The notes below the pieces were generated by a model. It had not been told where the DNA came from and did no database searches. It saw nothing but the letters and a program-made list of their open reading frames with translations. This document shows, in pieces, positions 3,023-63,598 of a DNA stretch of 64,000 nucleotides. How positions within the stretch are numbered: the stretch's first letter is position 1; every line of letters begins with the position of its first letter. The position numbers were made by a program, and so were the translations under genes. Source of the DNA: Candidatus Sumerlaeia bacterium (GTDB lineage Bacteria > Sumerlaeota > Sumerlaeia > SLMS01 > JAHLLQ01); NCBI GenBank assembly GCA_028284075.1, contig JANQSL010000053.1, positions 4,316 through 68,315 on the forward strand, given 5' to 3'.

Positions 3023-3835
3023 CTACTTCGCCGGAGGCAATTCACTCAGGTTGCAGTTTACGACAGCCAGCAGGGCTTCACGGTTTTCCGTCCACATTTG
3101 ATCGAAGGCTTTCGAATCAGGCATGCCACGAGGGAGTTCCAGAGTTACCATGGGTATGCCAAGTTCAATGCCTGCATAGGTGCCGTAGGAGCCGGGTGTT
3201 GGGTAGCCGATATAGGGTTTCACTTCGTAGCCGTTGTGTTCGGCCATAAGTTCCGCAAGAGGCAAGCCGTTGGGGCCGTCGTTGTTGTTGCACTTGAGGG
3301 GTTGGTGAACGCTGAGGATCTTGTCGGGCTGGTGATCGGCGTGGAGCTTGAAGACGATCCGGGTCTCCGGTTCTGATGCGGGTGTTGGACCGAAGTCGAC
3401 AACACGTTGTCCTCCGGGTTGTCTGCCCCAGTTGCCTGTTGGATAATTACGGTTCAGGTCGGTGTCGTTGGCATTGTTGCGAGTGTTATGCACGAAGCCG
3501 TCGGGGTTCAGAAGCGGAACAACAACGACTTGTTTGTCCGGCGCGACAAGATCCGGATTTTTGTGGAGAAGGTTGGCGAATTCAAAGCCGAAACGCGGTG
3601 TGCTGCGTTCGGAGCCATGGAAGCAGCTGAAGAAAAGTGTGACGTCTTCCCCTGTGCCAAAGACTGCTTTCCGGATTGGGCGATTTTCGACGGAGCGGCC
3701 GATTTCCTGCCAGGGGATGTGGCTGAACTGCGTGTAATAGTATTCGTCGGTCAGCTTTTTTTCAGCTCCGGCTCGAGAGGTTGAGCATCCGGCAACAAGC
3801 AGGATCTGTAACAAAAGAAAAAGAGCTTTGTACAC
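3023..3835 (-). CDS. M14-family zinc peptidase lipoprotein (murein peptide amidase / gamma-D-Glu-mDAP peptidase-like)
   Basis: Start moved to an in-frame GTG at 3835 with GGAG 7 nt upstream, giving a lipoprotein signal (LLLQILLVAGC lipobox). M14 motifs: HGSE (HxxE zinc ligands), NPDGF, NRNYP. The track ORF starts farther upstream at 4012. Confidence 0.7.
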   Translation of the reverse strand: MYKALFLLLQILLVAGCSTSRAGAEKKLTDEYYYTQFSHIPWQEIGRSVENRPIRKAVFGTGEDVTLFFSCFHGSERSTPRFGFEFANLLHKNPDLVAPDKQVVVVPLLNPDGFVHNTRNNANDTDLNRNYPTGNWGRQPGGQRVVDFGPTPASEPETRIVFKLHADHQPDKILSVHQPLKCNNNDGPNGLPLAELMAEHNGYEVKPYIGYPTPGSYGTYAGIELGIPMVTLELPRGMPDSKAFDQMWTENREALLAVVNCNLSELPPAK

Positions 3836-4187
3836 TGTGATCTCCAAATGAGTGGAATTCAAAAAACAAGACTCATTTAGCACGGGAGGTAAAGGCGGAT
3901 CGCACCATTTTGAACTCCCGGTACCTCCTATGCGGTACCAGGCTGTAGCGCACGGAAACTTTGTGGGAAGTCGCACAAATATTGGTATGGCAAGAGTGAC
4001 AGATTGAGGCAACCGGCTTAATCCGTCTGCTTTGTACCGCAGGGTTGCGATAATCGCCTGACAAAAGCTTAAGGATGTCGATCAAAGGCGACCTTTTGCT
4101 GGACACACACCGTCCTGTCTTCTTACAAATCCAATTCCGTCAGTTGAATTGCCTTCCGGCGTGCAATTTCCAAAGTGAGAGACCCGT

Positions 4188-5732
4188 ATGGGTGGTTCGC
4201 TTGACCGAACAGCTTCATCGGCATCAGAATTGAACGAAGCAACCGCTGACTCACCGGCCAAGAAGGGAAACACTGTCGGTGGTTACGTTATTGGGTCGCC
4301 AGCGCGCTCAGATCGCTTTTTCTACAAGTACAAGGGCTCCCACGCTTCAACGAGAACTTCTGTTTTTATCAAATTGCTACGGACCGAGTGCATCGGGACG
4401 GACTCTGAGTTCGGCAAGGAATTCAACAGGGTTTTGCACCGGTTGAGTTCGCTCAGTCACCCGGGTCTATTGCCGGTTCTGGACAGTGGAACTTTCGGCG
4501 ATCAGTATTATGTCATCGAGCCTGCCATCGATGGGTTTGCCTTGGCTCTTGGTCTGGAAAACGATCACTTTCTCGATGAAGACAAGATCAGAATTTTTCG
4601 TCAGCTTTCTGACGCAGTGGAAGGACTCCATTCGGAAGGTGTGGTTTATGGCGACCTTCATCCGAATGCGATTTTTATCACAACGGATGATTCGGTTCGT
4701 TGTGGCGGATATGGCATTTCACCTCTGATCGATTCGATCGGACAGTCTCCGGCCCGTTTGAATGAAGAGCATCGAAGATTCTGTGCTCCCGAGGTTTTGG
4801 CTGGTGAGCATGCCACTGTCCGATCTGATGTGTTTTCACTGACTGCTCTCTTTGCCTGTTTGCTTTTAGGCAAGGAGGCCTGGGACAAGTCGGACAGCCA
4901 TCTGTCTCAGATTATTCTCGTGCCGGATGTTCTCGAGTGCCTGAAGAAGGGAATGGCCCGGTCGCCGGAAGACAGATACGCGAGCGTCAGCGAGTTCTCG
5001 ACGGCTTTTTTTCAAAGATACACCAAGCACACATCAGTCGTTGTGCCGGACGATCCCACAACAAGACATCACGTTGAAGAAAACGAGAAGCCGGGACTGA
5101 ACAAGAAGGCCGCTTTGATTCAGGGAACAGCGCTCTTCCTCGGCGCAGCCGCTATTTTGGCCGGAGTTGTGGTTGTTCGCGAAAAGAAAATTGAGGAAGC
5201 GAAACGCGCACGGGCAGAGGCTGAACCCGCTCCAATCGCTGAACCGACCATGCCTCCTCAGTTTGACGTACCTGAGGAGAGGCCCACTCCGACACCGGTC
5301 CCAACGGCTACTCCGACCCCGACCCCAACTCCCGTAATGGCTACGCCGACCCCCGCGGTTCCCGGGAGCACGAACGCCTGGCTGGCCAGAGTGGATGAAT
5401 GGCCGGGGCACTTTCGCATCGCAGTCGGAATGCCAGGGTCGGTTCCGTGGACGTACCCCGCGATCGTGGTTTTTGATGATCTCAAGCCAGCCACCCGCGA
5501 GGCCGTTTATAATCTCTATCGTTCCGTCGAAGGTGGACAGCTCTTGTCGGGTGTTGTTCGTATTGTCGATCTGCCTCAGGAGGCCAATTCGATTGAGTCT
5601 GATTACGAGATCACTCGACCCGAAATTCTGTTTATCGATCCATCGGGTAAAGTTCATGCACGCATGCCGGTGACAGTGGAAGGGGCACGCTTTAGCGATG
5701 CGCTGAAGTCGTTTGTCTCTTCATCCGATTAA
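4188..5732 (+). CDS. Membrane-spanning eukaryotic-like Ser/Thr protein kinase homolog, probable pseudokinase, with Pro-Thr linker and C-terminal extracytoplasmic TlpA-like thioredoxin-fold domain lacking CxxC
   Basis: Kinase-fold motifs: beta3 Lys (SVFIKLL), an alphaC segment ending in L-HPGL, YYVIEP hinge, catalytic loop YGDLHPNAIF (HRD Arg lost, catalytic-loop Lys replaced by His), no DFG (CGGYG in its place), APE plus SDVFSLTALF. One TM helix (ALFLGAAAILAGVVVV) follows. Then a PT-rich linker (PTPTPVPTATPTPTPTP). The C-terminal domain carries the thioredoxin-fold landmark RPEILFIDPSGKV (cf. TlpA TPTTFLIDRDGKI) but no Cys pair. GAGAG RBS precedes the ATG. Confidence 0.7.
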   Translation: MGGSLDRTASSASELNEATADSPAKKGNTVGGYVIGSPARSDRFFYKYKGSHASTRTSVFIKLLRTECIGTDSEFGKEFNRVLHRLSSLSHPGLLPVLDSGTFGDQYYVIEPAIDGFALALGLENDHFLDEDKIRIFRQLSDAVEGLHSEGVVYGDLHPNAIFITTDDSVRCGGYGISPLIDSIGQSPARLNEEHRRFCAPEVLAGEHATVRSDVFSLTALFACLLLGKEAWDKSDSHLSQIILVPDVLECLKKGMARSPEDRYASVSEFSTAFFQRYTKHTSVVVPDDPTTRHHVEENEKPGLNKKAALIQGTALFLGAAAILAGVVVVREKKIEEAKRARAEAEPAPIAEPTMPPQFDVPEERPTPTPVPTATPTPTPTPVMATPTPAVPGSTNAWLARVDEWPGHFRIAVGMPGSVPWTYPAIVVFDDLKPATREAVYNLYRSVEGGQLLSGVVRIVDLPQEANSIESDYEITRPEILFIDPSGKVHARMPVTVEGARFSDALKSFVSSSD

Positions 5733-5785
5733 GCCGAAGCCGAAAGCCAGCAGACCAGAAGCCGCCGTTTGGCAGCCACAGTCAC

Positions 5786-6964
5786 TTAGTCGAAGTACCG
5801 GGACAGGAAATCCTGAATTTCGTTCCATGTGGTGACTTGCGCGTCCACCTTGAGCCGACCTCGTTCGCTTCCATCGCGGGCGAGGACCACGAAGGACGGC
5901 AGTTTGGATACACCAAACTTCTGTGCGTTGCGCTTGCCGATAGCGTCACTGACGTCAAGTTTGAGGAGGGCGAACCGTTCGAATTCGCGGCGAGTAATTG
6001 CATTGCCGGGGATCGTCATTCTGAGGTGTTCGTGCCCCGAGGAGCTGGAATCCGTGAAAAGAATGAGACACTTGGTTGCACGGCGCTGAGTTTCCGCCCA
6101 GGCAGCCTCCGGGTCATCATGCCAGTAGAGTGGCCCATTTGTGTCGATGAGTGATATTTCGGGTTTGGCCTGTCGTGGTGGGGGAGCCGAAATCTCCCTC
6201 GGAGTCGATTCCACGGGCCGTGGGGTCACGGCATATGCGGTGTCCGCTTCCGGCAGTTCGTCTTCGTCGGTGAAAAGGAGCGCGAGGTTGTCAAGGACCA
6301 CTGGTTGAAGAATGTCTGTATGAGAAACCATGACTCCTCCCAGCAGGTTATCCAGAGTCCCTTCAAAGAGCGGGCAAAACGATGCGGATTGTCCGTTCAT
6401 GCCGGCAACGATTGTGTCGTCATCGTTCAACAGGAGCTGAAGGCGGTTCCATCCCGGCTTGTGGATTGGAAGCTCCATGGCAGGTTGAGTTTGGAAGAGA
6501 ATCGGTCCCGGTGTAACACCGTCGGAATAGGAAAAATAGAAAATGCTTCCTCTCTTGTCGAAACCCGCCCGGTACATGGCGTATGCACTGCCACCCTTTG
6601 GCGTTGCCATTACGGAGATATTGGGAACGGGCTGGTCGGCATCCGGGAGGAAGAAATCGACTTGAAGCAGTGCGGCGCCTCGAGAGTCAAGCTCGTCCCG
6701 CGTAAAGGTCTCCGGGAGAGTGAGGCTGAGATGCGGTGCCGCGGATGTCGGGAGAAGCTGGAGTCCTCCGTTGCCGTGGCCGGGTTGCATATTCCCGTCC
6801 AGATCGATTTCCTTTGCATTGGCGGGCGAGGCTCTATGCCCAAGACGCAGCCGCCCCATGGCACCTGGTTCCTCGAACGATTCCAGAATGTCAGCCTGGG
6901 CAAGGCCTCCCTCCACGAAAAGGAAGGCTGTCAAAAATAGTGCCATGAATCCTGCGGATTTCAT
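5786..6964 (-). CDS. Secreted two-domain protein: N-terminal beta-rich domain plus C-terminal cysteine-less thioredoxin-like (TlpA-like) domain; paralog A
   Basis: Signal peptide MKSAGFMALFLTAFLFVEGGLAQA. C-terminal domain AWAETQRRATKCLILFTDSSSSGHEHL...LPSFVVLARDGSERG (thioredoxin fold with the CxxC position occupied by SGHE). Paralogous to the adjacent gene 7060..8244. Confidence 0.6.
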   Translation of the reverse strand: MKSAGFMALFLTAFLFVEGGLAQADILESFEEPGAMGRLRLGHRASPANAKEIDLDGNMQPGHGNGGLQLLPTSAAPHLSLTLPETFTRDELDSRGAALLQVDFFLPDADQPVPNISVMATPKGGSAYAMYRAGFDKRGSIFYFSYSDGVTPGPILFQTQPAMELPIHKPGWNRLQLLLNDDDTIVAGMNGQSASFCPLFEGTLDNLLGGVMVSHTDILQPVVLDNLALLFTDEDELPEADTAYAVTPRPVESTPREISAPPPRQAKPEISLIDTNGPLYWHDDPEAAWAETQRRATKCLILFTDSSSSGHEHLRMTIPGNAITRREFERFALLKLDVSDAIGKRNAQKFGVSKLPSFVVLARDGSERGRLKVDAQVTTWNEIQDFLSRYFD

Positions 6965-7059
6965 CAGCTCCGTATTTCCTCCTGGGTAAGATGGTGCTGT
7001 CTGCTTGTCTGGCGGAGTGCCCTCGGAAGCACCCTTGCCGTCAACTTGATTCGGTGGAG

Positions 7060-8244
7060 CTACGCTCCTTTCAATCCTTCAAGAATTTGCTGCCATGTCA
7101 TATCGGAATCTTTTGCGACATGGACGTTATTCGTCATTTCGCCATCGAGTCCAATGACGGCGACTGCAGGGAAATCCGTTAGGTTGTAACGTTGTGCGAA
7201 GACCTGACCGGAACCGCTGTCGACATCAACACGAAGCGGCACGCATTGTGTCAGGACCGGTTTGATTTCGTCGACGTTGAGGATTCTGATGATGTTTTCG
7301 TTCGCGGCAAGATCGTCACCGTGAAACACGGCGAAGATCACCTTGTTGGCGTTACTGGCTTCTCTCCACGCCTCTGAGGGGCTTGTCGTCCATTCCATTC
7401 CGCCGATGTTCCAGCGATTTGCCTGAAGTCCTGAAAACGGAACGGAGAGAGAGCTTCTGACAAACCAGGGCGAACCGGGCGGGTCATCCGTCGCGTCTGG
7501 CGTCCAGAGAATTCCCAGATTATCCGCGTAGACGGCTCGGTCGCCTCCGTCTTTTGCACGTGTTACCATAACACCGGGTTCGAGTCTCACCAGTGTGCTT
7601 TCGGATATTGGAGAGAATGACGTGATTTGTCCGTCGATGGCACACAGGATTTCCTCCTGCCCTCTGAAAATGAGTTGAAGACGATGCCAGCCTGGCAAGG
7701 TAAGGTCGAATTCTGAAAGAGACTGGCGAAGATAGATGTCAGGAGATCCCTTCTGATTGGTGAAGGAGAAGTAAACACGGTCCCGGTCCACACCGAACCG
7801 ATAGAAGCGGTATGACTTCCGATCAGCCGAGCCGTCGCTGGCGTTGGCCAGGATTGCCATCGTCGGGTGAACGGCAATGTCTGCCGGAACATAGAAGTCG
7901 ACCTGGAAGAGGGCTGCGCCTTCAGCTCCAAGCTTTTGACGATTCAGGGATCGGCGGTCGAGAACACTGAGATGCGGATCGCTTTCGAGAGGTCGCAGCT
8001 CCAACCCGTAATTTCCAACGATGGCGCTTGAAGGGCCCTCATGAAGCAGGCTGCCATATTCGCTTACCCCCCATGCAATAGAGCGTGTGGTAAGCGGGCT
8101 GCTATGATGGCCGTGGACGAGGGTGTCGGGCCACTTTCCAAGGGTGTCTTCGAAGTGCTGCACGGCATACTGGCGGTATTGTGCAAGCACCGGGCTGGCG
8201 ATCAGCAGCAGCATGACCAGGCTGAATGCGATCCTAAGGAACAT
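7060..8244 (-). CDS. Secreted two-domain protein with C-terminal cysteine-less thioredoxin-like domain; paralog B
   Basis: Signal peptide MFLRIAFSLVMLLLIASPVLAQ. Blocks shared with paralog A: GAALFQVDFYVPADIA vs GAALLQVDFFLPDAD, and PGWHRLQLIF vs PGWNRLQLLL. C-terminal thioredoxin-like region SEAWREASNANKVIFAVFHGDDLAAN...FPAVAVIGLDGEM. Confidence 0.6.
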   Translation of the reverse strand: MFLRIAFSLVMLLLIASPVLAQYRQYAVQHFEDTLGKWPDTLVHGHHSSPLTTRSIAWGVSEYGSLLHEGPSSAIVGNYGLELRPLESDPHLSVLDRRSLNRQKLGAEGAALFQVDFYVPADIAVHPTMAILANASDGSADRKSYRFYRFGVDRDRVYFSFTNQKGSPDIYLRQSLSEFDLTLPGWHRLQLIFRGQEEILCAIDGQITSFSPISESTLVRLEPGVMVTRAKDGGDRAVYADNLGILWTPDATDDPPGSPWFVRSSLSVPFSGLQANRWNIGGMEWTTSPSEAWREASNANKVIFAVFHGDDLAANENIIRILNVDEIKPVLTQCVPLRVDVDSGSGQVFAQRYNLTDFPAVAVIGLDGEMTNNVHVAKDSDMTWQQILEGLKGA

Positions 8245-8375
8245 TTCTTTCTCCTGTCAGTCTCGTCAAAAGAGCGGTTTGTTGGATGGCACTGCTACCC
8301 GGGGTGAGCAATGAAATATACACGGTTTTTTTTAGTTTTGAGCATACTGGTGACACTGTGTTTTGATCCACGATA

Positions 8376-8408
8376 GAAAAAGGCACCCTCCGGACGGAGG
8401 GTGCCTTT
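8376..8408 (-). terminator. Rho-independent terminator downstream of the 8434..12087 gene
   Basis: Perfect 10-bp stem GGCACCCTCC / GGAGGGTGCC with a GGAC loop. It is flanked by A5 on the plus strand, which gives a U-run on the minus-strand transcript. Confidence 0.6.
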
Positions 8409-8433
8409 GAACTGAAGGCAGGGGTTTTCGCTT

Positions 8434-11400
8434 TTATTCGCAGGGAGCGAAGGTTGTGGAACTGACTCGGACCACGCGATTGCGGAAACGGATGAACGAT
8501 ATGTTTGTCAGTGTGTCCACGCCGTCGTTTCCAACAAGATCGGTGACGGTCAGCGACCCGTCGGCATTTTGGCAAATCGAGTAGTTCTGGATGTTGCTGT
8601 AGTAGATGACCTTGTCGCGGTCGGCAACCGGGCCGCCGATCAGAGTGTCATCGCCTTCTCCGCCGATGAGCGTGTCTCGTCCTTCGCCGCCGTCAAGGAT
8701 GTCGTTCCCCTGTCCACCGGCAAGGAGGTCTCTGCCGGCATAACCAAAGACCTGGTCGTCACCCTCGTCGCCATCGAGTAACAGATCAAAACTCGCGGTG
8801 CCGTGGATAATGTCGTTACCGGCTCCGCCAAGGATGGCTGTTGCGAATCCGACTGCATCAGCACCTCCGGCGTCCAGGATGTCGTTGCCGCCAAGACCGA
8901 AAATGACGTCGCCAAGACCCGGGTTCGCGGAAGGGGTTTCGCTTGCGCTAAGAATCACGTTGTCGGTTTCGGAACCGATGATGATGTCGCCGCCTTTTGC
9001 GCGGCCGATTACGTTTTCCACTCCGGAGATGATGTCGTAGCCAAGAGAATGGCCGATGGCTTCTCCATCGACGAGGCTGACAACCACTGGCCTGGTGAGA
9101 GCCGAGTAGTCGAGGGTATCGATGCCGTCACCCGCATCGATAATGTCGTCGCCACGTTCTGACTTCGGTCCCGGATCCGGAAGGATGCGGTCATTACCGC
9201 CACTGGCGATGATTTCGTCGTCACCGGCGCCGCCAACGATGAGTTCATCGCAGGCCGTGCCGATCAGGAGGTCATCTGATTCGGTTCCGATAATATCGAG
9301 ACCGTCGCAATCGACGACTTCAGCCTTCCAGGGTGTTTCGGGGAAGGTTGAAATACCGTCCCACGCAATGGCGAGGTCGTCGAAGTAGTCAAGAGGACCC
9401 ATGGCCGTGTGGTGGAAGGGAGACTGGCCTGAGAAACCGAGCTGACGCGAAATGTCGACCTGCGTCACGATATCCGTTCCGGCCCGGAAGGTGTCGAGGG
9501 CGACTCCGAGGAGGCGGTCGCCTGTGTAGGCGGCACGATGTTCTGCGGCTCGAGCCGTGAATTCAGATATGCTGGAAGTGTAGATCTGAGGAAGTACCGC
9601 ATCGACAACACGGTTGCTCATCCATGTTGGCCAGTCCTGATAGTTGAAGTTAATGGCGTCGTCAAAGCGTCCGATGGGGAACGCAAGCAAGAGGGCGTCG
9701 GGATCGAGCCCGGTGATGGTTGAGTAGATGAGCTGCATTGCAGCGGTGTTTTGTTCACGACGGAACTGTTGCCAGTCGAGATCGAAGGGATCCGGAATTT
9801 CGGTCTTGCCCGTGAGGCGGTTGAATTCCGCGATCACGTCGGGATGGTATCCAAAGTCGCCCTCGGTCCGGTCGAAACGTGTGTCCGGGTAGCGCTGACG
9901 ATCAATGAAGATACCGTCGATGTCATAGTTCATTACGATGTCCGCGCAAATGTTGGCGTTGTAGAGGCGAACTTCAGGAAGTCCCGGGTCGAGCCAGATG
10001 CCGTCAGGATCCTCAGCGGTATTTTGAACCACGGGGTTTCCGTTGTTCCACTCGTAGGTGATCCATTCCGGATGAAGGTTGATGACGTGATTCGGGCGTG
10101 CGTCGGTATCAGCCCCGTCCGTGACAAGGTTTGTGTTCACGTAAGCAAAGACCTTCAGGCCTGCGGCGTGACCACGGGTGACGAATTCATGAAGGACGTC
10201 CACATCGCCAGCGAGAGGATTACGTGGCTCATCGTTCGGGAATGTTGCGTCGGTTTTGTTGGGGAAGTAGGTGGCGTCGCCGCGGTAACGCGTGTGGACA
10301 GCGATGGCGTTGTAACGCCTGCGGGCGGCGTCATTGACGTAGCTTTGGATTGTGCCAACGTCGTCGATACCAGGGTCAAAGACGAGGAAGACGGCGACGC
10401 GCATTTCAGGATCGTCAATCGGGGGCGGTCCGGGAAGCTCGCGGATTCGAACGGCATCCGCCAGAACCACGCGTCCCGCGGGCTCGCTTGCAGCCGCGTC
10501 CAGGGTGATGTTGAAGGGGCCGGCGTCGAGTTGATATTCACCAAGGACAACCCACGTCAGGTTATTGATGCGCTGGTCAGTGGTCGCGACGACAGTGCCG
10601 TCGGTTGTGGAGATTTCATAAGTCGCAACGGCAGCACGGTTGGAACCGGAACGATACTGAACGGCAACTTCGTAGAAGCCGCTCTCGGGAATATTGCCGG
10701 TCCACGTTGCCGTGTTCGGGAACTGTGTGGCGGCAAACTGATCGGTACCTCCATTGAAGCCAGGGGTGCCGCTGGTGGTCCAGCTGCCGGTGGTCGTGTA
10801 AACGGCGGGGCCGTCGTCATTGTCGAGGACAAGTTCGAAGGGAGGAGGTTCGACTTCGATGCCGCGGAGAACGATTGAGTCCACGGTCATGAAACTGCCA
10901 CTCCAGAGCGCGGAGTTGCTTCCCCACGTTCCACTCTCCACATCTGTTGAGAGGGCGATGAGGAGATCATCGCCAGCTGAGGCCACGAAGTTGCCCGTAA
11001 TCACCGTTTGAGTGTCGTTGGCCGTATCGTCACCGGGTGTAAGGCCAATGTAGGTGCCTGTCGTGGTCAGGCCGGGAAGGTTGCCGGCCGCGTCGCGGTG
11101 AACAGCTTCAGCTCCCGTCGCGACTCCGACCGAGTAGGCTCGAATGCCGTCCGGGTTTCCTGCGCTTTCGTCGACGTCCATGTTGATTTCGACCCGGTAG
11201 GTGCCATCGCCGGGGACAACGCCTTCATAGATGGCATAAACACCGTTGCCGAATCCGCCGTCGGTAATCCGCATTGCCGTGCTTCCGTCCAGCGTTGATG
11301 CACTTGGCGTCCCGAAGGTCGACGGTGTTGTGTCATACCAGGTGTTGAAATCCCCGCTGTTGGGGCTGTTGACGGCCACCACGCCACCGTCGAAGTTGTC

Positions 11401-12087
11401 GACGATGATTTCATCCGTGGGGGGAGGAGGTGCGACGTCTTTCAGCGTAATGTTGTCGACGAGCACAAAATTCCCGGACCACGTGGATGAACCGGCGTTC
11501 CAGCCGCCGGTCTGTACGTCGGTCCCAAGACCGATGAGAATGCTGTCACCAGCCTGTGCGCTGAATGTACCCGTCGTCAGGGTTTCAGTCGGGTTTGCGG
11601 TATCATCGCCGGCGGTAAGGCCGGAGTAGTTTGCCACGATAGAGAGCGGAGCCACGGCACTGGGATTGAGGCCGCGATGAACCGCGTCCGCTCCCACGGC
11701 CACGCCGACCTGGTATGCACTGAAGCCTGTCGGAGAACCGGACTCATCGACATCCATGTCGAGTTCGATCTGATAATCCCCGTCGGCGGGGACTACTCCG
11801 TCATAGATAATGTAAACACCATTCGTGAAACCACCGTCATCGATTCTCATCGCCGCGCTCCCCTCAAGGGTGGACGCCGATGGAGTTCCGAAGGTTGAGT
11901 TCGATGCATCATACCAGACGCCTGGTACACCAGATCCCTCAGGGTGGTTGACAGCTGTCACACCACCACTGAAGTCATCCAGCACCACGTCGGCTGAGAC
12001 AACGGACGCAACCAAGGCGAGGGTTCCGCTCACGAGGTTTCGTACGACTCTCCGTGTTGCCGCACATCGTGAAACGAAGTTCCGCAT
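8434..12087 (-). CDS. Very large secreted multidomain protein: two tandem-duplicated beta-sandwich (CBM-like) domains, a third beta domain, a GHL10/UPF0748 (YddW-like) glycoside-hydrolase-like core, and C-terminal hemolysin-type (RTX) Ca-binding repeats
   Basis: 1217 aa with a signal peptide. Two roughly 185-aa repeats share about 60% identity (GGVTAVNHPEGSG...FGTPSASTLEGSAAMRIDDGGFTNGVY vs GGVVAVNSPNSGD...FGTPSASTLDGSTAMRITDGGFGNGVY). Middle region MRVAVFLVFDPGID...KVFAYVNTNLV...DGIFIDRQRYP resembles the GHL10 TIM-barrel family. Repeated GGxGxDxx nonapeptides near the C-terminus (GGAGDDEII, GGAGNDIIHG, GGQGNDILDGGEGRDTLIGGEGDDTLIGG). Confidence 0.75.
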   Translation of the reverse strand: MRNFVSRCAATRRVVRNLVSGTLALVASVVSADVVLDDFSGGVTAVNHPEGSGVPGVWYDASNSTFGTPSASTLEGSAAMRIDDGGFTNGVYIIYDGVVPADGDYQIELDMDVDESGSPTGFSAYQVGVAVGADAVHRGLNPSAVAPLSIVANYSGLTAGDDTANPTETLTTGTFSAQAGDSILIGLGTDVQTGGWNAGSSTWSGNFVLVDNITLKDVAPPPPTDEIIVDNFDGGVVAVNSPNSGDFNTWYDTTPSTFGTPSASTLDGSTAMRITDGGFGNGVYAIYEGVVPGDGTYRVEINMDVDESAGNPDGIRAYSVGVATGAEAVHRDAAGNLPGLTTTGTYIGLTPGDDTANDTQTVITGNFVASAGDDLLIALSTDVESGTWGSNSALWSGSFMTVDSIVLRGIEVEPPPFELVLDNDDGPAVYTTTGSWTTSGTPGFNGGTDQFAATQFPNTATWTGNIPESGFYEVAVQYRSGSNRAAVATYEISTTDGTVVATTDQRINNLTWVVLGEYQLDAGPFNITLDAAASEPAGRVVLADAVRIRELPGPPPIDDPEMRVAVFLVFDPGIDDVGTIQSYVNDAARRRYNAIAVHTRYRGDATYFPNKTDATFPNDEPRNPLAGDVDVLHEFVTRGHAAGLKVFAYVNTNLVTDGADTDARPNHVINLHPEWITYEWNNGNPVVQNTAEDPDGIWLDPGLPEVRLYNANICADIVMNYDIDGIFIDRQRYPDTRFDRTEGDFGYHPDVIAEFNRLTGKTEIPDPFDLDWQQFRREQNTAAMQLIYSTITGLDPDALLLAFPIGRFDDAINFNYQDWPTWMSNRVVDAVLPQIYTSSISEFTARAAEHRAAYTGDRLLGVALDTFRAGTDIVTQVDISRQLGFSGQSPFHHTAMGPLDYFDDLAIAWDGISTFPETPWKAEVVDCDGLDIIGTESDDLLIGTACDELIVGGAGDDEIIASGGNDRILPDPGPKSERGDDIIDAGDGIDTLDYSALTRPVVVSLVDGEAIGHSLGYDIISGVENVIGRAKGGDIIIGSETDNVILSASETPSANPGLGDVIFGLGGNDILDAGGADAVGFATAILGGAGNDIIHGTASFDLLLDGDEGDDQVFGYAGRDLLAGGQGNDILDGGEGRDTLIGGEGDDTLIGGPVADRDKVIYYSNIQNYSICQNADGSLTVTDLVGNDGVDTLTNISFIRFRNRVVRVSSTTFAPCE

Positions 12088-12639
12088 GGGTTCCGTCTCC
12101 TTTGCAAAGTATATCCTGCGAGATTTACCCGCGTACTATTTTCGAAGAGAATCAGGATGGCAAGAAAATTAGTCTTAAAATGATGTCAGGTTCCCTTTAT
12201 CACAAAAAAACCCCGGGAAAGGGCATTGTTTTGAACAATTCCCTCATGCTGCGCTTTTGGAGGGGGGGGTGTTTTTATTTCCAAATACCGACGTCCGGAA
12301 TTCGCGCCGATAAATTACCTGTATATGTTGGTGATTTTTGTTAAACTAAAAATATTTGAAATATTAGATGGGCTAAAGTCTGCATCATCAGTGGGTTGAG
12401 TGATCAGTGGGTTTTTGAAAACCAGCGTTTATACCTTAATGCAAGATGCGGGTATTGGATTGCTCGTTATCAATGTGTTTGACCGGTATTTCTGTTGTGA
12501 ATAATTGATTTAAAATGAATTAGATATGTTTTGTTAATCTTTTCCGAACCCTTCTTTTGGAGCTGGTCTGTCCTTCTCTCTTGGCCTGTAGGCTGGATTG
12601 AAATTACGCTTCCGGCATCAATCAATCCAAGGATTGCAC
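12088..12639. promoter_or_regulatory. AT-rich divergent intergenic island between the giant RTX/GHL10 gene and the small Ca-repeat gene; probable shared promoter and regulatory region
   Basis: About 550 bp with GC far below the window average. Contains direct repeats ATCAGTGGGTT x2 and AATATT-tga-AATATT, a TTGACC(N17)TAATTG-like element about 130 bp upstream of the 12640 start, and a G8 homopolymer. Confidence 0.4.
12262..12269. repeat. Homopolymeric G8 tract in the intergenic region, about 175 bp upstream of the start of the 8434..12087 gene
   Basis: Sequence reads ...gcgcttttggaGGGGGGGGtgtttttatt.... Coordinates are hand-indexed and may be off by 1 nt. Confidence 0.8.
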
Positions 12640-13884
12640 ATGCGATTTCGCACTTTTTTTGTTCTCCCATTCCTGGGAATTCACTTAGGACTCCCGGCAG
12701 CCCTAACAGTCGAGTTTGTCAATAATCAGCTCACTGTTACCTCGGACACGGATTCGGATACCATTACACTGACGGAGGCGGGCGGCCAATTGCTGCTGAA
12801 CGGCGGCAATCCTGGCGGGATACCGATTACCGCAGCGGATGTCACGCGTATTGAAGTGGAGGGCGGTGAAGGAAACGACACAATTGATGTGAGTGCGCTG
12901 GATGAAACTTCAGGTTTGGTTTCCCTGTTCAACATCACTCTGAACGGCGGTTCCGGCAGTGATGAGATTACAGGTTCCGCACTTGGCAACAGCATCAGTG
13001 GAGGCCCGGGCGACGACACGCTTTCCGGGGGATCGGAAGGAGACGGTTTTTCATGGAACCGGGGTGATGGTGCGGACATGATCGATGCAGGGGGTGGGAG
13101 CGACTCGTTTGGTGCAAACGCGCTGACGGATGCCGCGCAGTTCGCGTTTCTCAAGGACGGCGGGGATGTTCTTCTACAGAGCAATGAAGGGGGCGTGGTG
13201 GAAACGAGAATTGCGGGTGTCGAGACGCTCAACCTTGGGGACGGTCCGGGCGATGACATGTTTGTCGTGGGCGACCTGGAGGGGACCGGAGTGACGCGCG
13301 TCTTGATGAACCTCGGTGAGGGGATGAACGTGGTTGATGCATCCGATCATGGAGGAGAGATTCTCTGTTCCCATATGATCAGCAGCGGATCGCTTCAATT
13401 TACAGGTGCGGCTGGTGCATTTCACACCGTTCAGATTAATAACGCTTTCACGAACGACCCACTGGAAAGATCCGTAACGAACGATTCCGGTTTTGTTCGG
13501 ATCGACACTGAGGGGCCGGATGTCAAGACAGTGCGTTGTCGTGATGTCAGTGCGGCAATCGTTCGTCTCCAGAATGGAGATGATGTTGTTACGGTTTCCG
13601 ATCTTGGTGACGATACGGGTGTGACCCGCCTGACCGTTTTTGGGGACGACGGCGATGATTCGGTGACCACTCGGCCTCAGGCGATTACGTTGCAGGACCT
13701 GCGGGGAGAGGGTGAGGATTCCGTCGATACTCTGGTGATTGATATGCAGAACATGTTCTTTGAGGATGACGGGTTCACGATTACACCGCTCGGTCAGGCG
13801 GACATTCTCTACAGTGGCTGGGAGTCGATGGATATTCAAAACCTGCCGCCCCCGGGTGATCAGTGGGCGGTTACAGGGAACTGA
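12640..13884 (+). CDS. Secreted hemolysin-type Ca-binding repeat protein (about 415 aa)
   Basis: Start taken at internal M (MRFRTFFVLPFLGIHLGLPAALT signal peptide). GGxGxD-type repeats: GGSGSDEITG, GGPGDDTLSGG, GGGSDSFG. Asp/Gly-rich throughout. Confidence 0.6.
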   Translation: MRFRTFFVLPFLGIHLGLPAALTVEFVNNQLTVTSDTDSDTITLTEAGGQLLLNGGNPGGIPITAADVTRIEVEGGEGNDTIDVSALDETSGLVSLFNITLNGGSGSDEITGSALGNSISGGPGDDTLSGGSEGDGFSWNRGDGADMIDAGGGSDSFGANALTDAAQFAFLKDGGDVLLQSNEGGVVETRIAGVETLNLGDGPGDDMFVVGDLEGTGVTRVLMNLGEGMNVVDASDHGGEILCSHMISSGSLQFTGAAGAFHTVQINNAFTNDPLERSVTNDSGFVRIDTEGPDVKTVRCRDVSAAIVRLQNGDDVVTVSDLGDDTGVTRLTVFGDDGDDSVTTRPQAITLQDLRGEGEDSVDTLVIDMQNMFFEDDGFTITPLGQADILYSGWESMDIQNLPPPGDQWAVTGN

Positions 13885-46283: not shown

Positions 46284-48113
46284 GTGGCTTTCGGCTCTCG
46301 TGGTGACACACTGGAAGTCTCGGATTTCGTTCCTCCCTGGATGTGGGTTTGTGTGGTTCTGATTGCGATATGTGTCAGAACCGTGGGCCTTGATGGAATC
46401 CCTCTCACAAACGACGAGCAGCACTACGTCGCAACCAGCCTTGCGCCGGAGGAGTTCGCCAATATTTCAGCTATTCGCGACGTATTGACAGCGGGATGGA
46501 TCGAAGGACGTGCAAGACATCCATTACTTTTTCAACTCGCAAACCACTTTCTCATTTTTCCGGTGTTCGGCACCGGTTTCGGAGCCATGCGTCTGTTGAA
46601 TGCGCTGGCCGGGATCTTGACAGTGATATTTACAGGCATGCTGGCACGGACTCTGGGGGCCTCGTCACGTCAATCTCTTGCGGCAGCGGCTGTCCTTGCG
46701 ATTATGCCTTTCCATGTCAGGTTTTCCCGATCGGCTTACCTTGATCCCTTCTTCGTGATGTGGATAGCAGGAGCGTTTTTATCAGCGGCGGTTGCAATTC
46801 GACGCCAATCCGTTCTGTTGGGCATTTTGACAGGTATTCTTGCCGCCGCCATGGCATCCACGAAAATCTCGGCTCCGCTTTTTGTTACGGGAGTTGTGGC
46901 GTTTGCACTGATTCCCGTGCGTGGCGGGCCTCTCCTGTCTCGGAAAGCCGGCGCGTCTCTTGTTGCGGCTTTCCTGGCCTTCCTGGCTTTATTTCTTCTC
47001 CTCAACGATCCGTGGGAATATGCTTCCGCCGTTCTCTCACGTGAATCTTCCGATTCGAAATACGGTCAGCCTGTCAGTGTATGGTTGGATTCGACTCTTC
47101 TTGACGGGGAGTTCTGGGTGAACCTGGGTGGCGTGGCAGGTTTGCTTCTCCCGGCGACAATTTTTCCGGCACTGATTGGAGCCATTCGCTTTGGTCAGTG
47201 GGAGAGGCGGGATGTCGGCTGGATGTTGGCGCTCGGGCTTCCATGTCTCCCTTTGGTCGTTCTCCATGCTCCCGCGTTTTCAGGTGAACACGGGCTGCTT
47301 CCTTTCGCCATTATAGCCTCCATTCTGGCAGGTTTTGGATGCGTGGATTTTTCCGGCAATGTCACAAAATCAGGCCTGCTCTATTTTGCAACAGCCCCCG
47401 TGTTGGCGTTTCTTTGGGGACTTAACTTCGGCCCGTTGCCCTACTCACCTTATTACAACCCGGTGCGGGGATTCGACCCGGGCTACGAGGCAATTCGCCT
47501 TCTCGGCAAGCATGCTTCTCCCGACAGCATAACGGTTGTGGACTATGTCACAGAGGACAGTCTTCGGCACTTTATCCTCGGAGCACCGGGTCCGGTGATT
47601 GGTTTTGATCTGCACCGGAATCCCGATGCCTTTCGGTCAGATTTGATTGGATGGTGTGATCAGGCTCTGGTGGTTGGAGACGCCGGAGCGGTGCATGGAG
47701 CACGGAACCTTGAGCCAACTGCGGCAAGAGTTGTTGGTCCTAACGTTGTTCAGCTTTTCGTAAATGAAGGGGCTCGTGTTCCGATCGGTCCGCCAGACCT
47801 TGACGTTGAGCGAATGCTCGAAGGCGGAACCATTCTAACCGGTCCCAGGTGGTGTTTGTTTCTTTCATCTTTCGAGCAGCCTGTCATCGACGGACAAAAA
47901 ATTCCTGTTACCCTCCGCAAGGAAGAACAGAGGGAGCGCCTTGCCTGGCGCGCGCCGACGCCTCATCTGGAAATCCATTTTTCCGAAAACTTCAACGAGT
48001 CAGGCTTCAGTATGACGCTGGAGCTTGACAAACCTCACCCCTGGTTCGTGTTTGGCCGCAGTGCTTACGTTCGCCTTCGCAATGAGTACGCGCCAGCCAG
48101 GGCGGCCAGATAG
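46284..48113 (+). CDS. GT-C fold membrane glycosyltransferase (GT39/PMT- or ArnT-like, polyprenyl-phosphate-sugar dependent)
   Basis: Polytopic. Acidic DE motif in the first extracytoplasmic loop (GIPLTNDEQHY). About 11 TM helices, then a C-terminal soluble region. Confidence 0.65.
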   Translation: MAFGSRGDTLEVSDFVPPWMWVCVVLIAICVRTVGLDGIPLTNDEQHYVATSLAPEEFANISAIRDVLTAGWIEGRARHPLLFQLANHFLIFPVFGTGFGAMRLLNALAGILTVIFTGMLARTLGASSRQSLAAAAVLAIMPFHVRFSRSAYLDPFFVMWIAGAFLSAAVAIRRQSVLLGILTGILAAAMASTKISAPLFVTGVVAFALIPVRGGPLLSRKAGASLVAAFLAFLALFLLLNDPWEYASAVLSRESSDSKYGQPVSVWLDSTLLDGEFWVNLGGVAGLLLPATIFPALIGAIRFGQWERRDVGWMLALGLPCLPLVVLHAPAFSGEHGLLPFAIIASILAGFGCVDFSGNVTKSGLLYFATAPVLAFLWGLNFGPLPYSPYYNPVRGFDPGYEAIRLLGKHASPDSITVVDYVTEDSLRHFILGAPGPVIGFDLHRNPDAFRSDLIGWCDQALVVGDAGAVHGARNLEPTAARVVGPNVVQLFVNEGARVPIGPPDLDVERMLEGGTILTGPRWCLFLSSFEQPVIDGQKIPVTLRKEEQRERLAWRAPTPHLEIHFSENFNESGFSMTLELDKPHPWFVFGRSAYVRLRNEYAPARAAR

Positions 48114-60247: not shown

Positions 60248-61210
60248 ATGAAACTGGCCTTTTTTGGAACGCCCGGGTTTGCGGAGGTCGCTCTTCGCCG
60301 CCTTCTGGAGACGAATCATGAAATCGCTCTGGTCGTGACGCAACCGGACAAACCGGCGGGCAGAGGCCGGAAACTGACTTCGCCTCCCGTGAAGTCGCTG
60401 GCTCTTGCGGGCGGGCTTGAAGTCGCACAGCCGGAGTCCGTGCGTGTCCCTGAGTTCGCTGAGCGGTTGCGGAAACTGGAACTCGATGTCGCGATCGTCG
60501 TTGCTTACGGTAAAATTCTGCCAGGTTCGATTCTCGGTATTCCAAAATATGGATTCCTGAATATTCATGGGTCACTTCTGCCAAAGTATAGAGGTGCGGC
60601 TCCGATCCAATGGGCTGTTGCGCGTGGCGAGTCGAAGACGGGTGTGACGATCATGCAAATTGATGAGGGGCTGGACAGCGGTCCGATGATCTCTTCCCGT
60701 GAAGTTGAAATACTGGAAGATGACGATGCTCGAAGTCTTCACGATATTCTCAGCCATACGGGTGCCGAGCTTCTGGAGGAAACTCTGGCAGGAATCCAGG
60801 CTGAGGGCCGCGTTGAGTCCGTTTCTCAGAACGAGGATGAGGCGACGCACGCGCCACTGATCAGGCGCGAGGACGCTCGCATTGACTGGAACCGTACCAC
60901 GGAGGAAATCATCTGTCATATTCGTGGCTTTGTGCTTTGGCCCGGAGCCCATACAAAACTTAAGGAAACCAGCTTGAAAATTCTCTCTGCAGAGGCTGTT
61001 GATCCGGCATGGATAGAAGTCGACTGGCGGGACGAGCGCATTCCGGCCGGAACCATCGTGGATTCGGTGAAGGGGCGCGGTTTTGTTGTGAGGACCGGGA
61101 GTGGATTGTTATTGGCAACAAGAGTTCGGCCCCAGGGAAAGAAAGAGATGGACGGTGCATCCGCGCTAAACGGAGGGATCGTCCACATCGGGGATCGGTT
61201 CACCGACTGA
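60248..61210 (+). CDS. fmt: Methionyl-tRNA formyltransferase
   Basis: MKLAFFGTPGFA N-terminus. Formyltransferase SLLP motif (NIHGSLLPKYRGAAPIQWA). C-terminal beta-barrel domain. Length 320 aa. Confidence 0.9.
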   Translation: MKLAFFGTPGFAEVALRRLLETNHEIALVVTQPDKPAGRGRKLTSPPVKSLALAGGLEVAQPESVRVPEFAERLRKLELDVAIVVAYGKILPGSILGIPKYGFLNIHGSLLPKYRGAAPIQWAVARGESKTGVTIMQIDEGLDSGPMISSREVEILEDDDARSLHDILSHTGAELLEETLAGIQAEGRVESVSQNEDEATHAPLIRREDARIDWNRTTEEIICHIRGFVLWPGAHTKLKETSLKILSAEAVDPAWIEVDWRDERIPAGTIVDSVKGRGFVVRTGSGLLLATRVRPQGKKEMDGASALNGGIVHIGDRFTD

Positions 61211-63598
61211 ATCAGCGATGTCTTTTCGGACCGCGAAGACGTAGCTGACCCATGACAGCCCCTTGTACTGGCCGGTGCCCGGAAGTTCGCGAAGCCAGTA
61301 GTACCGCCAGAACCCTTTCCACACACGCAGGGACGCTTCGGAATCCTTCCAGGGAAGATAGATCGCTTTCAAGTCCGTCTGTTGTGGCACCCAATGCATA
61401 TGGGCGCGTCCGTCGAAGAGTTCATAGTTTTCCCTGATCCACACGTCGTTGCTGTGGGTTTCCTCCTTGAGGAACAGGAAGTCATAGTCGGGAGCCTGAC
61501 CCTCTGTCGGGAGCATACCCATGTCCCAATCGAGATTGCGCAGATACCATCGCATCGGCCACTGGAGTTCCGGGGAACCCACATAGGTTCGAACAGTGGT
61601 GTCGTCTTCCGATGTGGCAGCCGTTCGCAGAACCAGTTCCGTGTGGATCTTGACCTCTCGCGCGGGATGAGCGTAAATCATACGTTCTCTCACCGTGTCG
61701 AAGTTGATGAACGAAAGAAGTATGCCTGAACGTGCGGAGAGAATGGCCGCCGTTCCGAGAACGACTGTCGAAAGACTCTGCAAAAGAATTCTTCCCGAGG
61801 GTTTCAGTGTTTGAAGATGATTTGCAAACTTCTGCACATAAGCGCCTGTCAGCAGTACAAGTGGAAGCGTGATGTAAATGCCAACCCACGGCACTTTTTC
61901 GCGGGCGTAGGAAACGGCGCCGATTATTGTGACGAGCCACCAGATCAGAAGGGCATGAAACCGCTCACCCCGATGAATGCCGCGCCATGTCAAAATGGTC
62001 CCGATCATGATCAGGAAGCCGATAAGGAAGAGATGCACACCGCTTGTGAGGCTCAGAGTGTCATCAAGATATGCCTTCCCTGACCAGCTCAGTTTCTCAC
62101 CCCCGCGCTGAGTTTCGGAGAAAAGAAACAGTTCCCAGGACTGCGAGTGGAAGTGGTGGAATGACCATGCAACGAAAAGGGTGAAAGCAAGCACGGTAAT
62201 CAATCGCCCTGCACTCGGCTTGAGAGCGATTGCTGTCGCTGTGACGACAATTCCGGCCGAGAGTGTTGCAAACCATGACATTCCAGGATCCAGGCCACGA
62301 AAGAAGAGGCCGTGAAAAATGGCAAGGGCGGCCGCAGCCGGAAGCAATCCGGATGCAAGAGTCCGACTCCATTTCATTCGAAAGAGCGCGAAGAGGCTCG
62401 CGGCGAGCACCAGGAGAAGAGGTCCGGTTTCGTAAACAAGCATATTGAGAAGATGCATGTGGAAGGGTCCCTTGATGCGGTGCTGAGCGTTCTGCCCCAT
62501 CCAGTATTCAAGGGTGTCCTGGTAAATTTCAAACGGACCTGCTGGATAGACAAACACTGTCGTAAAGAGTGCGATGTACAGGGCGAGTCCCGTTCCGGCG
62601 GCCGCTGTAATCCACCAGCGAGCCTCGATTGTCCTTCTCCATATTTCAGCGGTAAGGGTTCGAGCGCCGATCCGGTGTCGTATGAGGATGTTGACCAGCC
62701 ACGTTGATGCGAGACTCCCGGCAAACAGCAAACAATAGAACAGGCGCCAGAATGACGGTTCTCCAAGGGTGCCTGCGCTCTCCACGGGGGCATGCCATCC
62801 CAGCGCGAGAGGCAGAGATTGAACGTTCTTGAGAGGAAAGTCGCGACCGATGGCGCTAACGACACTTGTCTCGTAGGAGATGCCTTCCAGCACTCGTGTC
62901 AGAAAGAGCGTGATGATGGTGAAGCCGGTCAGTGCAACTGGCCATAGAGGAAGAGCGGGCAGCGGAGACGGTATGCTTTCTGTTGTCTTGCAATTTTCAA
63001 TGATCCAGCGAGCGACATCGTGGGTCACAACAAGCAGGGCGAATGTGATGAGAGTGAAATACACGAAAACACAGCTCTCTTTGTTGCAGAAGAGAACGAT
63101 GGAGGCGAAAACAAACGATGCGAGCCAGGCATGATTTCGCGACTTCCACCAGTGAGCAAGGGAGACGATCATCCAAAGAGTCGTGAAGACGAAGAGTCCG
63201 TCGTTTCTGAAGAATCGTTGGTAGAACATCAATGTTGGAGAAAGAGTATAGAAACAGCAGGCTGTCAGCATTCCCCATGGGCCAAGCCATGGTCGCATGC
63301 CGCGGATCCAGAACAGGCCGCCAATACCGAGCAAGGCGCAACCCAGGCGCATAACGAAGGTACTGTCACCGAGCACGCTGAACAGGGCAGCCTGGATCCA
63401 CAGCATCGCCGGCCCGTGAAGGATAGGCTGGTAGTCATAGTTCAGGTTTTCAACGATATGAAACCATGTGTAGTATACAAAAAGAGACTCGTCATGCATC
63501 ACACCACGTTCGTCGAGTCGAAACAGCCTGGTTGCCGCGCAGGTCAGCAGGATGAACAGAAAGACTAAATTCTCGCGCCGTTGTGGAGAGAGCTTCAT
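61166..63598 (-). CDS. Large GT-C fold polytopic membrane protein (PMT_2 / TIGR03663-like putative glycosyltransferase) with C-terminal extracytoplasmic domain
   Basis: About 15 predicted TM helices. Acidic motif in the first loop (GVMHDESLFVYY). About 250-aa soluble C-terminal domain. 45-nt convergent overlap with fmt. Confidence 0.6.
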   Translation of the reverse strand: MKLSPQRRENLVFLFILLTCAATRLFRLDERGVMHDESLFVYYTWFHIVENLNYDYQPILHGPAMLWIQAALFSVLGDSTFVMRLGCALLGIGGLFWIRGMRPWLGPWGMLTACCFYTLSPTLMFYQRFFRNDGLFVFTTLWMIVSLAHWWKSRNHAWLASFVFASIVLFCNKESCVFVYFTLITFALLVVTHDVARWIIENCKTTESIPSPLPALPLWPVALTGFTIITLFLTRVLEGISYETSVVSAIGRDFPLKNVQSLPLALGWHAPVESAGTLGEPSFWRLFYCLLFAGSLASTWLVNILIRHRIGARTLTAEIWRRTIEARWWITAAAGTGLALYIALFTTVFVYPAGPFEIYQDTLEYWMGQNAQHRIKGPFHMHLLNMLVYETGPLLLVLAASLFALFRMKWSRTLASGLLPAAAALAIFHGLFFRGLDPGMSWFATLSAGIVVTATAIALKPSAGRLITVLAFTLFVAWSFHHFHSQSWELFLFSETQRGGEKLSWSGKAYLDDTLSLTSGVHLFLIGFLIMIGTILTWRGIHRGERFHALLIWWLVTIIGAVSYAREKVPWVGIYITLPLVLLTGAYVQKFANHLQTLKPSGRILLQSLSTVVLGTAAILSARSGILLSFINFDTVRERMIYAHPAREVKIHTELVLRTAATSEDDTTVRTYVGSPELQWPMRWYLRNLDWDMGMLPTEGQAPDYDFLFLKEETHSNDVWIRENYELFDGRAHMHWVPQQTDLKAIYLPWKDSEASLRVWKGFWRYYWLRELPGTGQYKGLSWVSYVFAVRKDIADSVGEPIPDVDDPSV

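Follow-up and report, generated by a model that had tools for sequence, protein, structure and literature searches.

The window, a 64,000-nucleotide stretch of DNA from a Candidatus Sumerlaeia bacterium (contig JANQSL010000053.1, positions 4,316 to 68,315 of the forward strand), carries a locus at which three genes each encode a thioredoxin-fold module without cysteine. One module forms the ectodomain of a membrane protein with a kinase fold; the other two end paralogs A and B, a pair of proteins with signal peptides. Directly upstream of the gene for B, on the same strand, lies the gene of an exported 1217-residue protein with a GHL10 domain (PF02638, 102.7 bits). The three modules are homologous, belong to the Thioredoxin_7 branch and are all predicted to be extracytoplasmic; their cysteine-free fold, first proposed in a sequence-only reading of the window, is borne out by profile matches, hhalign comparisons and AlphaFold2 (AF2) models, and the location proposed there agrees with the signal peptides and the single transmembrane helix. 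The main value of the locus lies in the unnamed family of A and B, called here the lectin-thioredoxin family, and its GHL10 partner, while a link to the kinase-fold protein is put forward as a hypothesis. The features are collected in Table 1, where the coordinates of the three open reading frames (ORFs) agree exactly with those placed before. The DNA is ordinary chromosomal DNA of about 55% G+C, with glmS, secA and asnB among the housekeeping genes inside the window. A scan of positions 3900-12700 for promoters and terminators gave sites no more numerous than in shuffled sequence.

Table 1. Genes and domains at the locus, in window coordinates (HMM, hidden Markov model)
Feature	Coordinates	Strand	Basis
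Receptor pseudokinase gene, 514 aa: cytoplasmic kinase fold, one transmembrane helix, Pro/Thr linker, thioredoxin-like ectodomain (predicted)	4188..5732	+	ORF, Pfam Pkinase 2e-20, two orthologs
Pseudokinase domain, ~residues 30-280	4275..5027	+	Alignments to PknE/StkP and 12 canonical kinases
Single transmembrane helix, residues 307-333	5106..5186	+	Kyte-Doolittle scan, only segment above threshold
Charged segment, then Pro/Thr-rich linker, residues 334-392	5187..5363	+	Read from sequence; ortholog conservation poor
Cysteine-free thioredoxin-like ectodomain, residues 393-514 (122 aa); beta1 AIVVFDD, cis-Pro loop TRPEILFID	5364..5729	+	
Paralog A, 392 aa: signal peptide, predicted ConA-like jelly roll, linker, Cys-less thioredoxin-like domain	5786..6964	-	ORF, family HMM 378 bits
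Paralog A N-terminal jelly roll, ~residues 24-240	6245..6895	-	Alignment to modelled B domain; invariant residues kept
Paralog A thioredoxin-like domain, residues 271-392; CxxC site SSGH	5789..6154	-	C-domain HMM 120 bits, alignment
Paralog B, 394 aa: signal peptide, predicted ConA-like jelly roll, disordered linker, Cys-less thioredoxin-like domain	7060..8244	-	ORF, orthologs, AF2 model
Paralog B N-terminal beta-sandwich, residues 24-248, predicted ConA-like lectin/glucanase fold	7501..8175	-	Foldseek vs PDB
Paralog B thioredoxin-like domain, residues 285-394; CxxC site LAAN, cis-Pro P359	7063..7392	-	AF2 secondary structure, profile matches
GHL10 protein gene, 1217 aa: signal peptide, two N-terminal repeats, Golvesin_C, GHL10 TIM-barrel, RTX repeats	8434..12087	-	Pfam

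The paralogs are full-length homologs, as the earlier reading held, and BLASTP aligns them at 28% identity over 359 residues (E 2e-35). The AF2 model of B, with a predicted local distance difference test score (pLDDT) of 82.9, consists of a beta-sandwich, a disordered linker and a thioredoxin-like alpha/beta domain. The sandwich makes up the N-terminal two thirds of each protein. In a Foldseek search of the PDB, the N-terminal domain of B matched the lectin-like Hc-N subdomain of botulinum toxin and the globular domain of calreticulin (E 2e-9 to 3e-8, probability 1.0), and the domain is, as modelled, a ConA-like jelly roll of lectin or calreticulin type. The domain gave no match to a Pfam family or, searched as a profile, to a PDB sequence, and a relative gave a faint Laminin_G_3 match. 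Paralog A keeps those jelly-roll residues that do not vary in the family (R, D, Y-R, W-x-R and D-N). Both proteins had been described by their thioredoxin ends; the fold given there is right, but the larger and more conserved jelly roll and the GHL10 gene upstream had been left out.

The C-terminal domain of B is modelled with a beta-alpha-beta-alpha-beta-beta-alpha core. Against the PDB, the profile of the paralog domain matched 2kuc (1.9e-6), 2lst, AGR2 (4e-4), ResA (7.5e-3) and DsbD-gamma (~0.02), and hhalign paired it with CxxC-bearing Thioredoxin_7 domains at 99.5%. Because 2kuc, 2lst, AGR2 and DsbD-gamma lead these matches and ResA scores so weakly, the paralog modules are placed by sequence in the Thioredoxin_7/DsbD-gamma/DsbH branch and not with TlpA and ResA. 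The label "TlpA-like" first given to them therefore does not hold, and the best matches are of the Thioredoxin_7, Thioredoxin_2 and DsbH types. Membership of Thioredoxin_7 is seen at the profile level only; as a single sequence, B reaches a weak 14.1 bits against the Pfam family, under the gathering cut-off of 27. The TlpA/ResA/DsbE branch typically carries an extra N-terminal hairpin and a central insertion, as in the structures of ResA and CcmG. The model of B, and likewise that of the pseudokinase ectodomain, has the canonical thioredoxin elements and one N-terminal helix only. The general fold and the extracytoplasmic location are common to that branch and the window modules, and ResA and TlpA are among the weak structural matches, but it is not their closest branch and the window modules have no CxxC. 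Pfam gave neither a Redoxin nor an AhpC-TSA signal on the proteins of the window.

With the Thioredoxin_7/DsbD-gamma/DsbH proteins (PF13899; 2kuc, 2ju5) the window modules share the fold, the cis-Pro loop and the extracytoplasmic location. The CxxC is absent from the window modules, however, so that thiol-disulfide exchange is impossible there. The CGPC site of 2kuc aligns with LAAN in B and with SSGH in A. That no CxxC stands at these sites had been seen before, and the letters then given (SGHE and DDLAAN) agree with this to within one residue.

The family to which the paralogs belong was delimited by searching 1.84 billion representatives exhaustively with a profile; a word-indexed search had given only 14 relatives. 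At E<=1e-30 the profile search returned 92 clusters, defined at 50% identity, and nearly all of their members are about 400 residues long and match over their full length. The named sources are all metagenome-assembled genomes (MAGs) of Sumerlaeota, the best-named homolog coming from a Sumerlaeia MAG, and a scan of species-representative genomes gave three matches, all of them in Sumerlaeota. The lectin-thioredoxin proteins thus form a family without a name, of about 90 clusters, in which a ConA-like jelly roll is joined to a Cys-less Thioredoxin_7 module. Below the family clusters come many proteins with tandem Thioredoxin_7, Thioredoxin_2 or DsbH domains, the Thioredoxin_7 proteins at E 1e-31 to 1e-14, and Redoxin is marginal among them.

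No member among about 100 family representatives has a CxxC at the active site, and about ten have a single Cys at its second position; redox death is therefore ancient and family-wide. A binding, non-redox role, already favoured over disulfide chemistry in the sequence-only reading, is well supported by this conservation pattern. Most of the residues that never vary in 86 full-length members lie in the jelly roll (R102, D116, Y148-R149, W186-(H187)-R188, G224 and D241-N242); the thioredoxin module has hardly any fixed residues besides structural ones (W285, the cis-Pro P359, which is 100% conserved, and W384). It is thus in the jelly roll, more probably than in the thioredoxin module, that a specific ligand would be recognised or catalysis take place. 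An acidic, calcium-binding role of the calsequestrin kind was considered for the modules and judged unlikely, with net charges of only 0 to -7.

Orthologs of paralog B occur in related genomes at 35-69% identity. Paralog A is divergent and has no close ortholog, its best matches being other branches of the family at 33-34%. A recent tandem duplication was ruled out as the origin of the pair, A being closer to those branches than to B and absent from close relatives. Tandem arrays occur elsewhere in the family, with three copies at locus L013 (7001-10852, +) and two at L014 (5606-8269, +), where neither a GHL10 gene nor a kinase gene lies nearby; local amplification of the family recurs. Among related proteins, P0244 fuses the jelly roll to Golvesin_C. 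Others (P0223, P0229, P0238, P0253 and P0252) have three to five tandem Thioredoxin_7 or Thioredoxin_2 domains, one of them in a chain of 1850 residues. The CxxC is missing from 60 of the 97 domains scored in related multi-domain proteins, and proteins with several dead modules in a row seem to be frequent in metagenomes.

Gene order ties the family to the GHL10 protein. In the window and at loci L002, L005/6, L007 (54% identity) and L008, five genomes together, the gene of the GHL10 protein or of an ortholog stands directly upstream of a lectin-thioredoxin gene on the same strand, and at L001 a GHL10 fragment lies beside such a gene in divergent orientation. The GHL10 protein, and not the pseudokinase, is the most widely conserved neighbour of the family. 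The protein is conserved across Sumerlaeota loci. Its two N-terminal repeats, of about 190 residues each, have no Pfam match; the ortholog at L007 has more copies of them, and an alpha-amylase/Glucodextran_C gene lies directly upstream there. A relation between these repeats and the jelly roll was ruled out (hhalign probability 0.1%).

The kinase-fold protein is a convergent neighbour of a lectin-thioredoxin gene in the window, L001 and L002 only. The genes beyond it differ in all three: an M14 peptidase gene and glmS in the window, Polyketide_cyc and DUF5009 at L001, and infC-rpmI-rplT at L002. Conservation of the gene triad in relatives, one of the checks attached to the sequence-only reading, was not found; L001 and L002 have a single lectin-thioredoxin gene each beside the pseudokinase, the triad is confined to the window, and distant genomes have no such kinase.

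The kinase fold itself is of the Hanks type. Pfam Pkinase (PF00069) matches residues 48-249 at 73.7 bits (cut-off 31.7), and 442 solved kinases match the protein at E<=1e-3, the best being PknE of Mycobacterium tuberculosis (2h34, E 5e-17). The motifs were read by alignment to PknE, StkP and 12 canonical bacterial kinases, and every canonical sequence has GxGGMGxVY, VAIK, the alphaC Glu, HRDxKPxN, DFG and [AS]PE. In the window protein the Gly loop reads SPARSDRFFYKYK, with zero glycines. The beta3 Lys (VFIK) and APE are retained and the alphaC Glu is replaced by Val. HRD has become YGD, keeping the Asp and losing the Arg; the catalytic-loop Lys is a His (YGDLHPN), and DFG is GYG. The losses and the one retention reported earlier (HRD Arg, catalytic-loop Lys and DFG gone, Gly loop degenerate, catalytic Asp kept) are all correct by these alignments, which show no intact catalytic signature.

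Only two orthologs of the protein are known, P0002 at L001 and the kinase at L002, at 40-44% identity. Two metagenome scans for further ones, one of them with the ectodomain alignment, gave none. The catalytic loops of the two read HGDLSTD (L001) and HGNISPS (L002), the HRD Asp being Asn in the latter, so the catalytic Asp is retained in two of the three proteins, and neither it nor the Asn is conserved throughout. The beta3 Lys and APE are invariant in all three. GYG is also present in all three, and the metal-binding Asp is thus lost throughout. A kinase fold counts as a pseudokinase when any one of three residues, beta3 Lys, HRD Asp and DFG Asp, is missing (PMC12599244). The window protein is one by this definition, as had been thought probable, because the DFG Asp is gone from all three orthologs; the Gly loop, alphaC Glu and catalytic-loop Lys are lost as well. 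Compared by motifs alone, its pattern fits none of the seven bacterial families reviewed in the same source (ActPs1-3, GLW, CP1, DYD and DLHK). It keeps the beta3 Lys, which ActPs2 does not and which is Arg in DYD and Leu or Trp in GLW; its HRD position is [HY]G[DN], unlike that of GLW; and it has a transmembrane helix, which CP1 and DLHK lack.

A hydropathy scan of the pseudokinase found one transmembrane helix and no N-terminal signal peptide, from which the kinase fold is predicted to be cytoplasmic and the C-terminal domain extracytoplasmic. The latter has zero cysteines, and its CxxC site reads DLKP or LKPA. Pfam searched with the ectodomain alone gave no match even at E<=10. A profile of the three orthologous ectodomains gave only two matches among PDB sequences at E<=10, both thioredoxin folds of the Thioredoxin_7 type (DsbH 2ju5, E 0.02; 2kuc, E 0.19), and the match spans the alpha2/cis-Pro/beta3/beta4/alpha3 region. 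With hhalign the ectodomain aligns to the C-terminal profile of the paralogs at 94% (E 1.4e-7) and to generic Thioredoxin_7 domains, CxxC-bearing ones included, at 95.6-97% (E 1e-8 to 9e-11). The AF2 model, of moderate confidence, has the order beta-alpha-beta-alpha-beta-beta-alpha, its first 30 residues being of low confidence, and P86 of the ectodomain (TRPEILF) aligns with the cis-Pro P359 of paralog B. On this evidence the thioredoxin fold of the ectodomain is accepted. The idea that the ectodomain is a copy of a neighbour's thioredoxin module finds no support, as generic Thioredoxin_7 domains score at least equally (97%, 8.6e-11, against 94%, 1.4e-7).

Cys-less thioredoxin folds act as binding modules in eukaryotic proteins of the endoplasmic reticulum (ER). 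The domains b and b' of PDI, ERp27/ERp29, AGR2, UAS and calsequestrin use a CxxC-less thioredoxin fold for binding or scaffolding, as is supposed for the window modules, and AGR2, ERp27, PDILT b', UAS and calsequestrin appear among the matches of these modules. They differ in being eukaryotic and ER-resident or cytosolic, in a sequence relation at the superfamily level only, and in that none of them has the ConA-like jelly-roll fusion of the window paralogs.

Among bacterial receptors, the layout of the pseudokinase is that of PknE, where a Hanks-type kinase fold at the N-terminus is followed by a single transmembrane helix and, outside the cytoplasm, by a domain of the thioredoxin superfamily. 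The sensor of PknE is described as a DsbG homolog sensitive to redox state (PMC1847690). In PknE the kinase is active and the sensor capable of redox chemistry, whereas the window protein has GYG and a Cys-free ectodomain whose best matches are of the Thioredoxin_7 type. Single-pass or membrane-linked pseudokinase scaffolds are also known: in MviN a pseudokinase domain (ActPs3) is connected through the membrane to a domain outside the cytoplasm that binds carbohydrate, and EssB/YukC is a membrane pseudokinase scaffold (PMC12599244). The motif pattern of MviN/MurJ and EssB/YukC differs from that of the window protein (beta3 Lys kept, [HY]G[DN], GYG), and a thioredoxin domain is mentioned for none of the seven families in that 2025 review. 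Among GHL10 proteins, Cwp19 of Clostridioides difficile acts on peptidoglycan as a lytic transglycosylase (PMC6016235), and the substrate of DogH of Deinococcus radiodurans is starch (PMC9967864). They have the TIM-barrel glycosidase-like domain in common with the window protein, but a lectin-thioredoxin partner is reported for neither. Neither PknE, MviN and EssB/YukC nor the eukaryotic Cys-less thioredoxin proteins combine all elements of the window locus.

The reading proposed here is that the lectin-thioredoxin proteins assist the GHL10 enzyme without redox chemistry and that the pseudokinase reads the same cue; taken as a whole, it is given an even chance. A glycan, the substrate or the product of that enzyme, would be bound by the jelly roll, while a protein or ligand would dock on the dead thioredoxin module, in the manner of the PDI b and b' domains. 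In a small subclade of Sumerlaeia, a receptor pseudokinase with a like module would have been placed beside the GHL10/lectin-thioredoxin pair as a lineage-specific addition. It would most likely read the cue either directly from the same ligand or through contact with the secreted proteins, and would signal by scaffolding or allostery and not by phosphotransfer. In favour of this, the pseudokinase and a lectin-thioredoxin gene have stayed together in three genomes despite the differing genes beyond the kinase. A relay into the pseudokinase is a plausible hypothesis drawn from that synteny in three close relatives.

Several observations weigh against the proposal. The pseudokinase gene is convergent to the lectin-thioredoxin genes and is not co-transcribed with them. 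It is known from three close genomes only, in which the synteny may reflect recent common ancestry. The ectodomain is no nearer to the adjoining modules of A and B than to generic Thioredoxin_7 domains; its model reaches a pLDDT of only 70 and was built on an alignment of mostly paralog domains, which biases it to their fold. The distant family loci L009, L011, L012, L013 and L014 have neither a GHL10 nor a kinase neighbour. The N-terminal domain might also be an enzyme, a ConA-fold hydrolase or lyase, instead of a lectin; its invariant R/D/Y/H/W set fits either.

Convergence and narrow distribution are also what would be expected if the adjacency were coincidental, with the pseudokinase an independent, lineage-specific receptor or scaffold for unrelated sensing or dimerisation and the lectin-thioredoxin proteins serving GHL10 only. 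The lack of special kinship between ectodomain and neighbours fits this as well, Cys-less Thioredoxin_7 domains being common (the 60 of 97 noted above). Coincidence is given a substantial probability, though a smaller one than the proposed reading. Against it stand the persistence of the pair through the change of genes beyond the kinase and a second, unrelated receptor kinase at the corresponding place in L005/6. The latter is of the Ser/Thr type and canonical (263-1891, -; GTGGMSEVY, VAIK, HLD..KPSN, DFG), divergent from the GHL10/lectin-thioredoxin pair, whose ectodomain matches AMPK1_CBM (29.7 bits, cut-off 26.8) and CBM48. It was ruled out as an ortholog of the pseudokinase, having a different ectodomain and 28% identity, the generic level among kinases. 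The order of motifs in its ectodomain is odd, with the start of the carbohydrate-binding module (CBM) at the very C-terminus and a C-terminal-like part earlier, and two partial or permuted CBM modules may be present. A CBM-like receptor kinase at L005/6 fits a glycan-sensing theme at the GHL10 locus.

At the other extreme, the three genes might form one dedicated periplasmic relay, which the sequence-only reading gave as an example and in which the paralogs catch a peptide or ligand with their thioredoxin modules and pass the signal to the pseudokinase ectodomain. The modules are homologous, the genes adjacent and the pair conserved in three genomes, but the triad exists in the window alone, relatives having one lectin-thioredoxin gene, and about 90 family clusters stand against three known pseudokinases. 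Such a relay would moreover ignore the GHL10 partner and place the function in the thioredoxin module, when the conserved functional residues are in the jelly roll; it is regarded as distinctly unlikely. Less doubtful, though still unlikely, is that the lectin-thioredoxin proteins are themselves enzymes, glycoside hydrolases or polysaccharide lyases of the ConA fold that act with GHL10 and are merely stabilised by the thioredoxin module. The ConA-like fold houses many hydrolases and lyases, and the residues invariant in the 86 members (those listed above for the jelly roll, except G224) resemble a catalytic or substrate-binding set. The top fold matches, however, are lectin-type and not enzymes (toxin Hc-N, calreticulin), and no sequence match to a solved structure or Pfam family was found.

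The kinase-fold protein could, for its part, be an atypical active enzyme with non-canonical nucleotide binding or another reaction, as in SelO and SidJ. Atypical activities of "pseudokinases" are documented (PMC12599244), and the beta3 Lys and APE are invariant in the three orthologs, with the catalytic Asp in two. Against this stand the Gly in place of the DFG Asp in all three, the glycine-free Gly loop, the lost alphaC Glu and the failure of the catalytic Asp and Asn to be conserved among orthologs, and the idea is rated improbable. Hardly less improbable is the boldest form of the preferred reading, a three-part periplasmic glycan-sensing system in which GHL10 would release a glycan, the lectin-thioredoxin proteins would capture it through the jelly roll and dock by like module on the ectodomain, and the pseudokinase would scaffold a response with neither redox chemistry nor phosphotransfer. 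If it were true, a redox fold and a kinase fold would both have been repurposed as recognition parts of one pathway.

Other genes of the window complete the picture of the surroundings. The pseudokinase gene adjoins an M14 zinc carboxypeptidase-like gene (3023-4012, -), whose longest ORF has a TTG start and 329 residues; the public gene call for this locus (L004) has 270, and the real start is probably further downstream. Divergent to the GHL10 gene is a gene (12598-13884, +) for an exported protein of 428 residues whose only family match is a weak signal for RTX repeats (E 0.006). Two genes for membrane glycosyltransferases of the PMT/PMT_2 type, which are dolichyl-phosphate-mannose protein mannosyltransferase-like, lie at 46284-48113 (+) and 61166-63598 (-). 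They are about 40 kb from the genes of the calreticulin-like/thioredoxin-like secreted proteins, and no link between them is shown.

Neither dead thioredoxin folds nor bacterial pseudokinases are new, but few bacterial examples have a known function. The lectin-thioredoxin family, tied by gene order to GHL10, offers a way to learn what the GHL10 enzymes of an uncultured phylum act on and which accessory factors they have. A pseudokinase with a thioredoxin-like ectodomain is a very rare receptor, and the locus is a testable case of catalytic folds reused as binding modules on both sides of the membrane. If the link among the three proteins is true, the locus would be a compact model of non-catalytic bacterial signalling; if it is false, the pairing of lectin-thioredoxin protein and GHL10 still merits description as a family.

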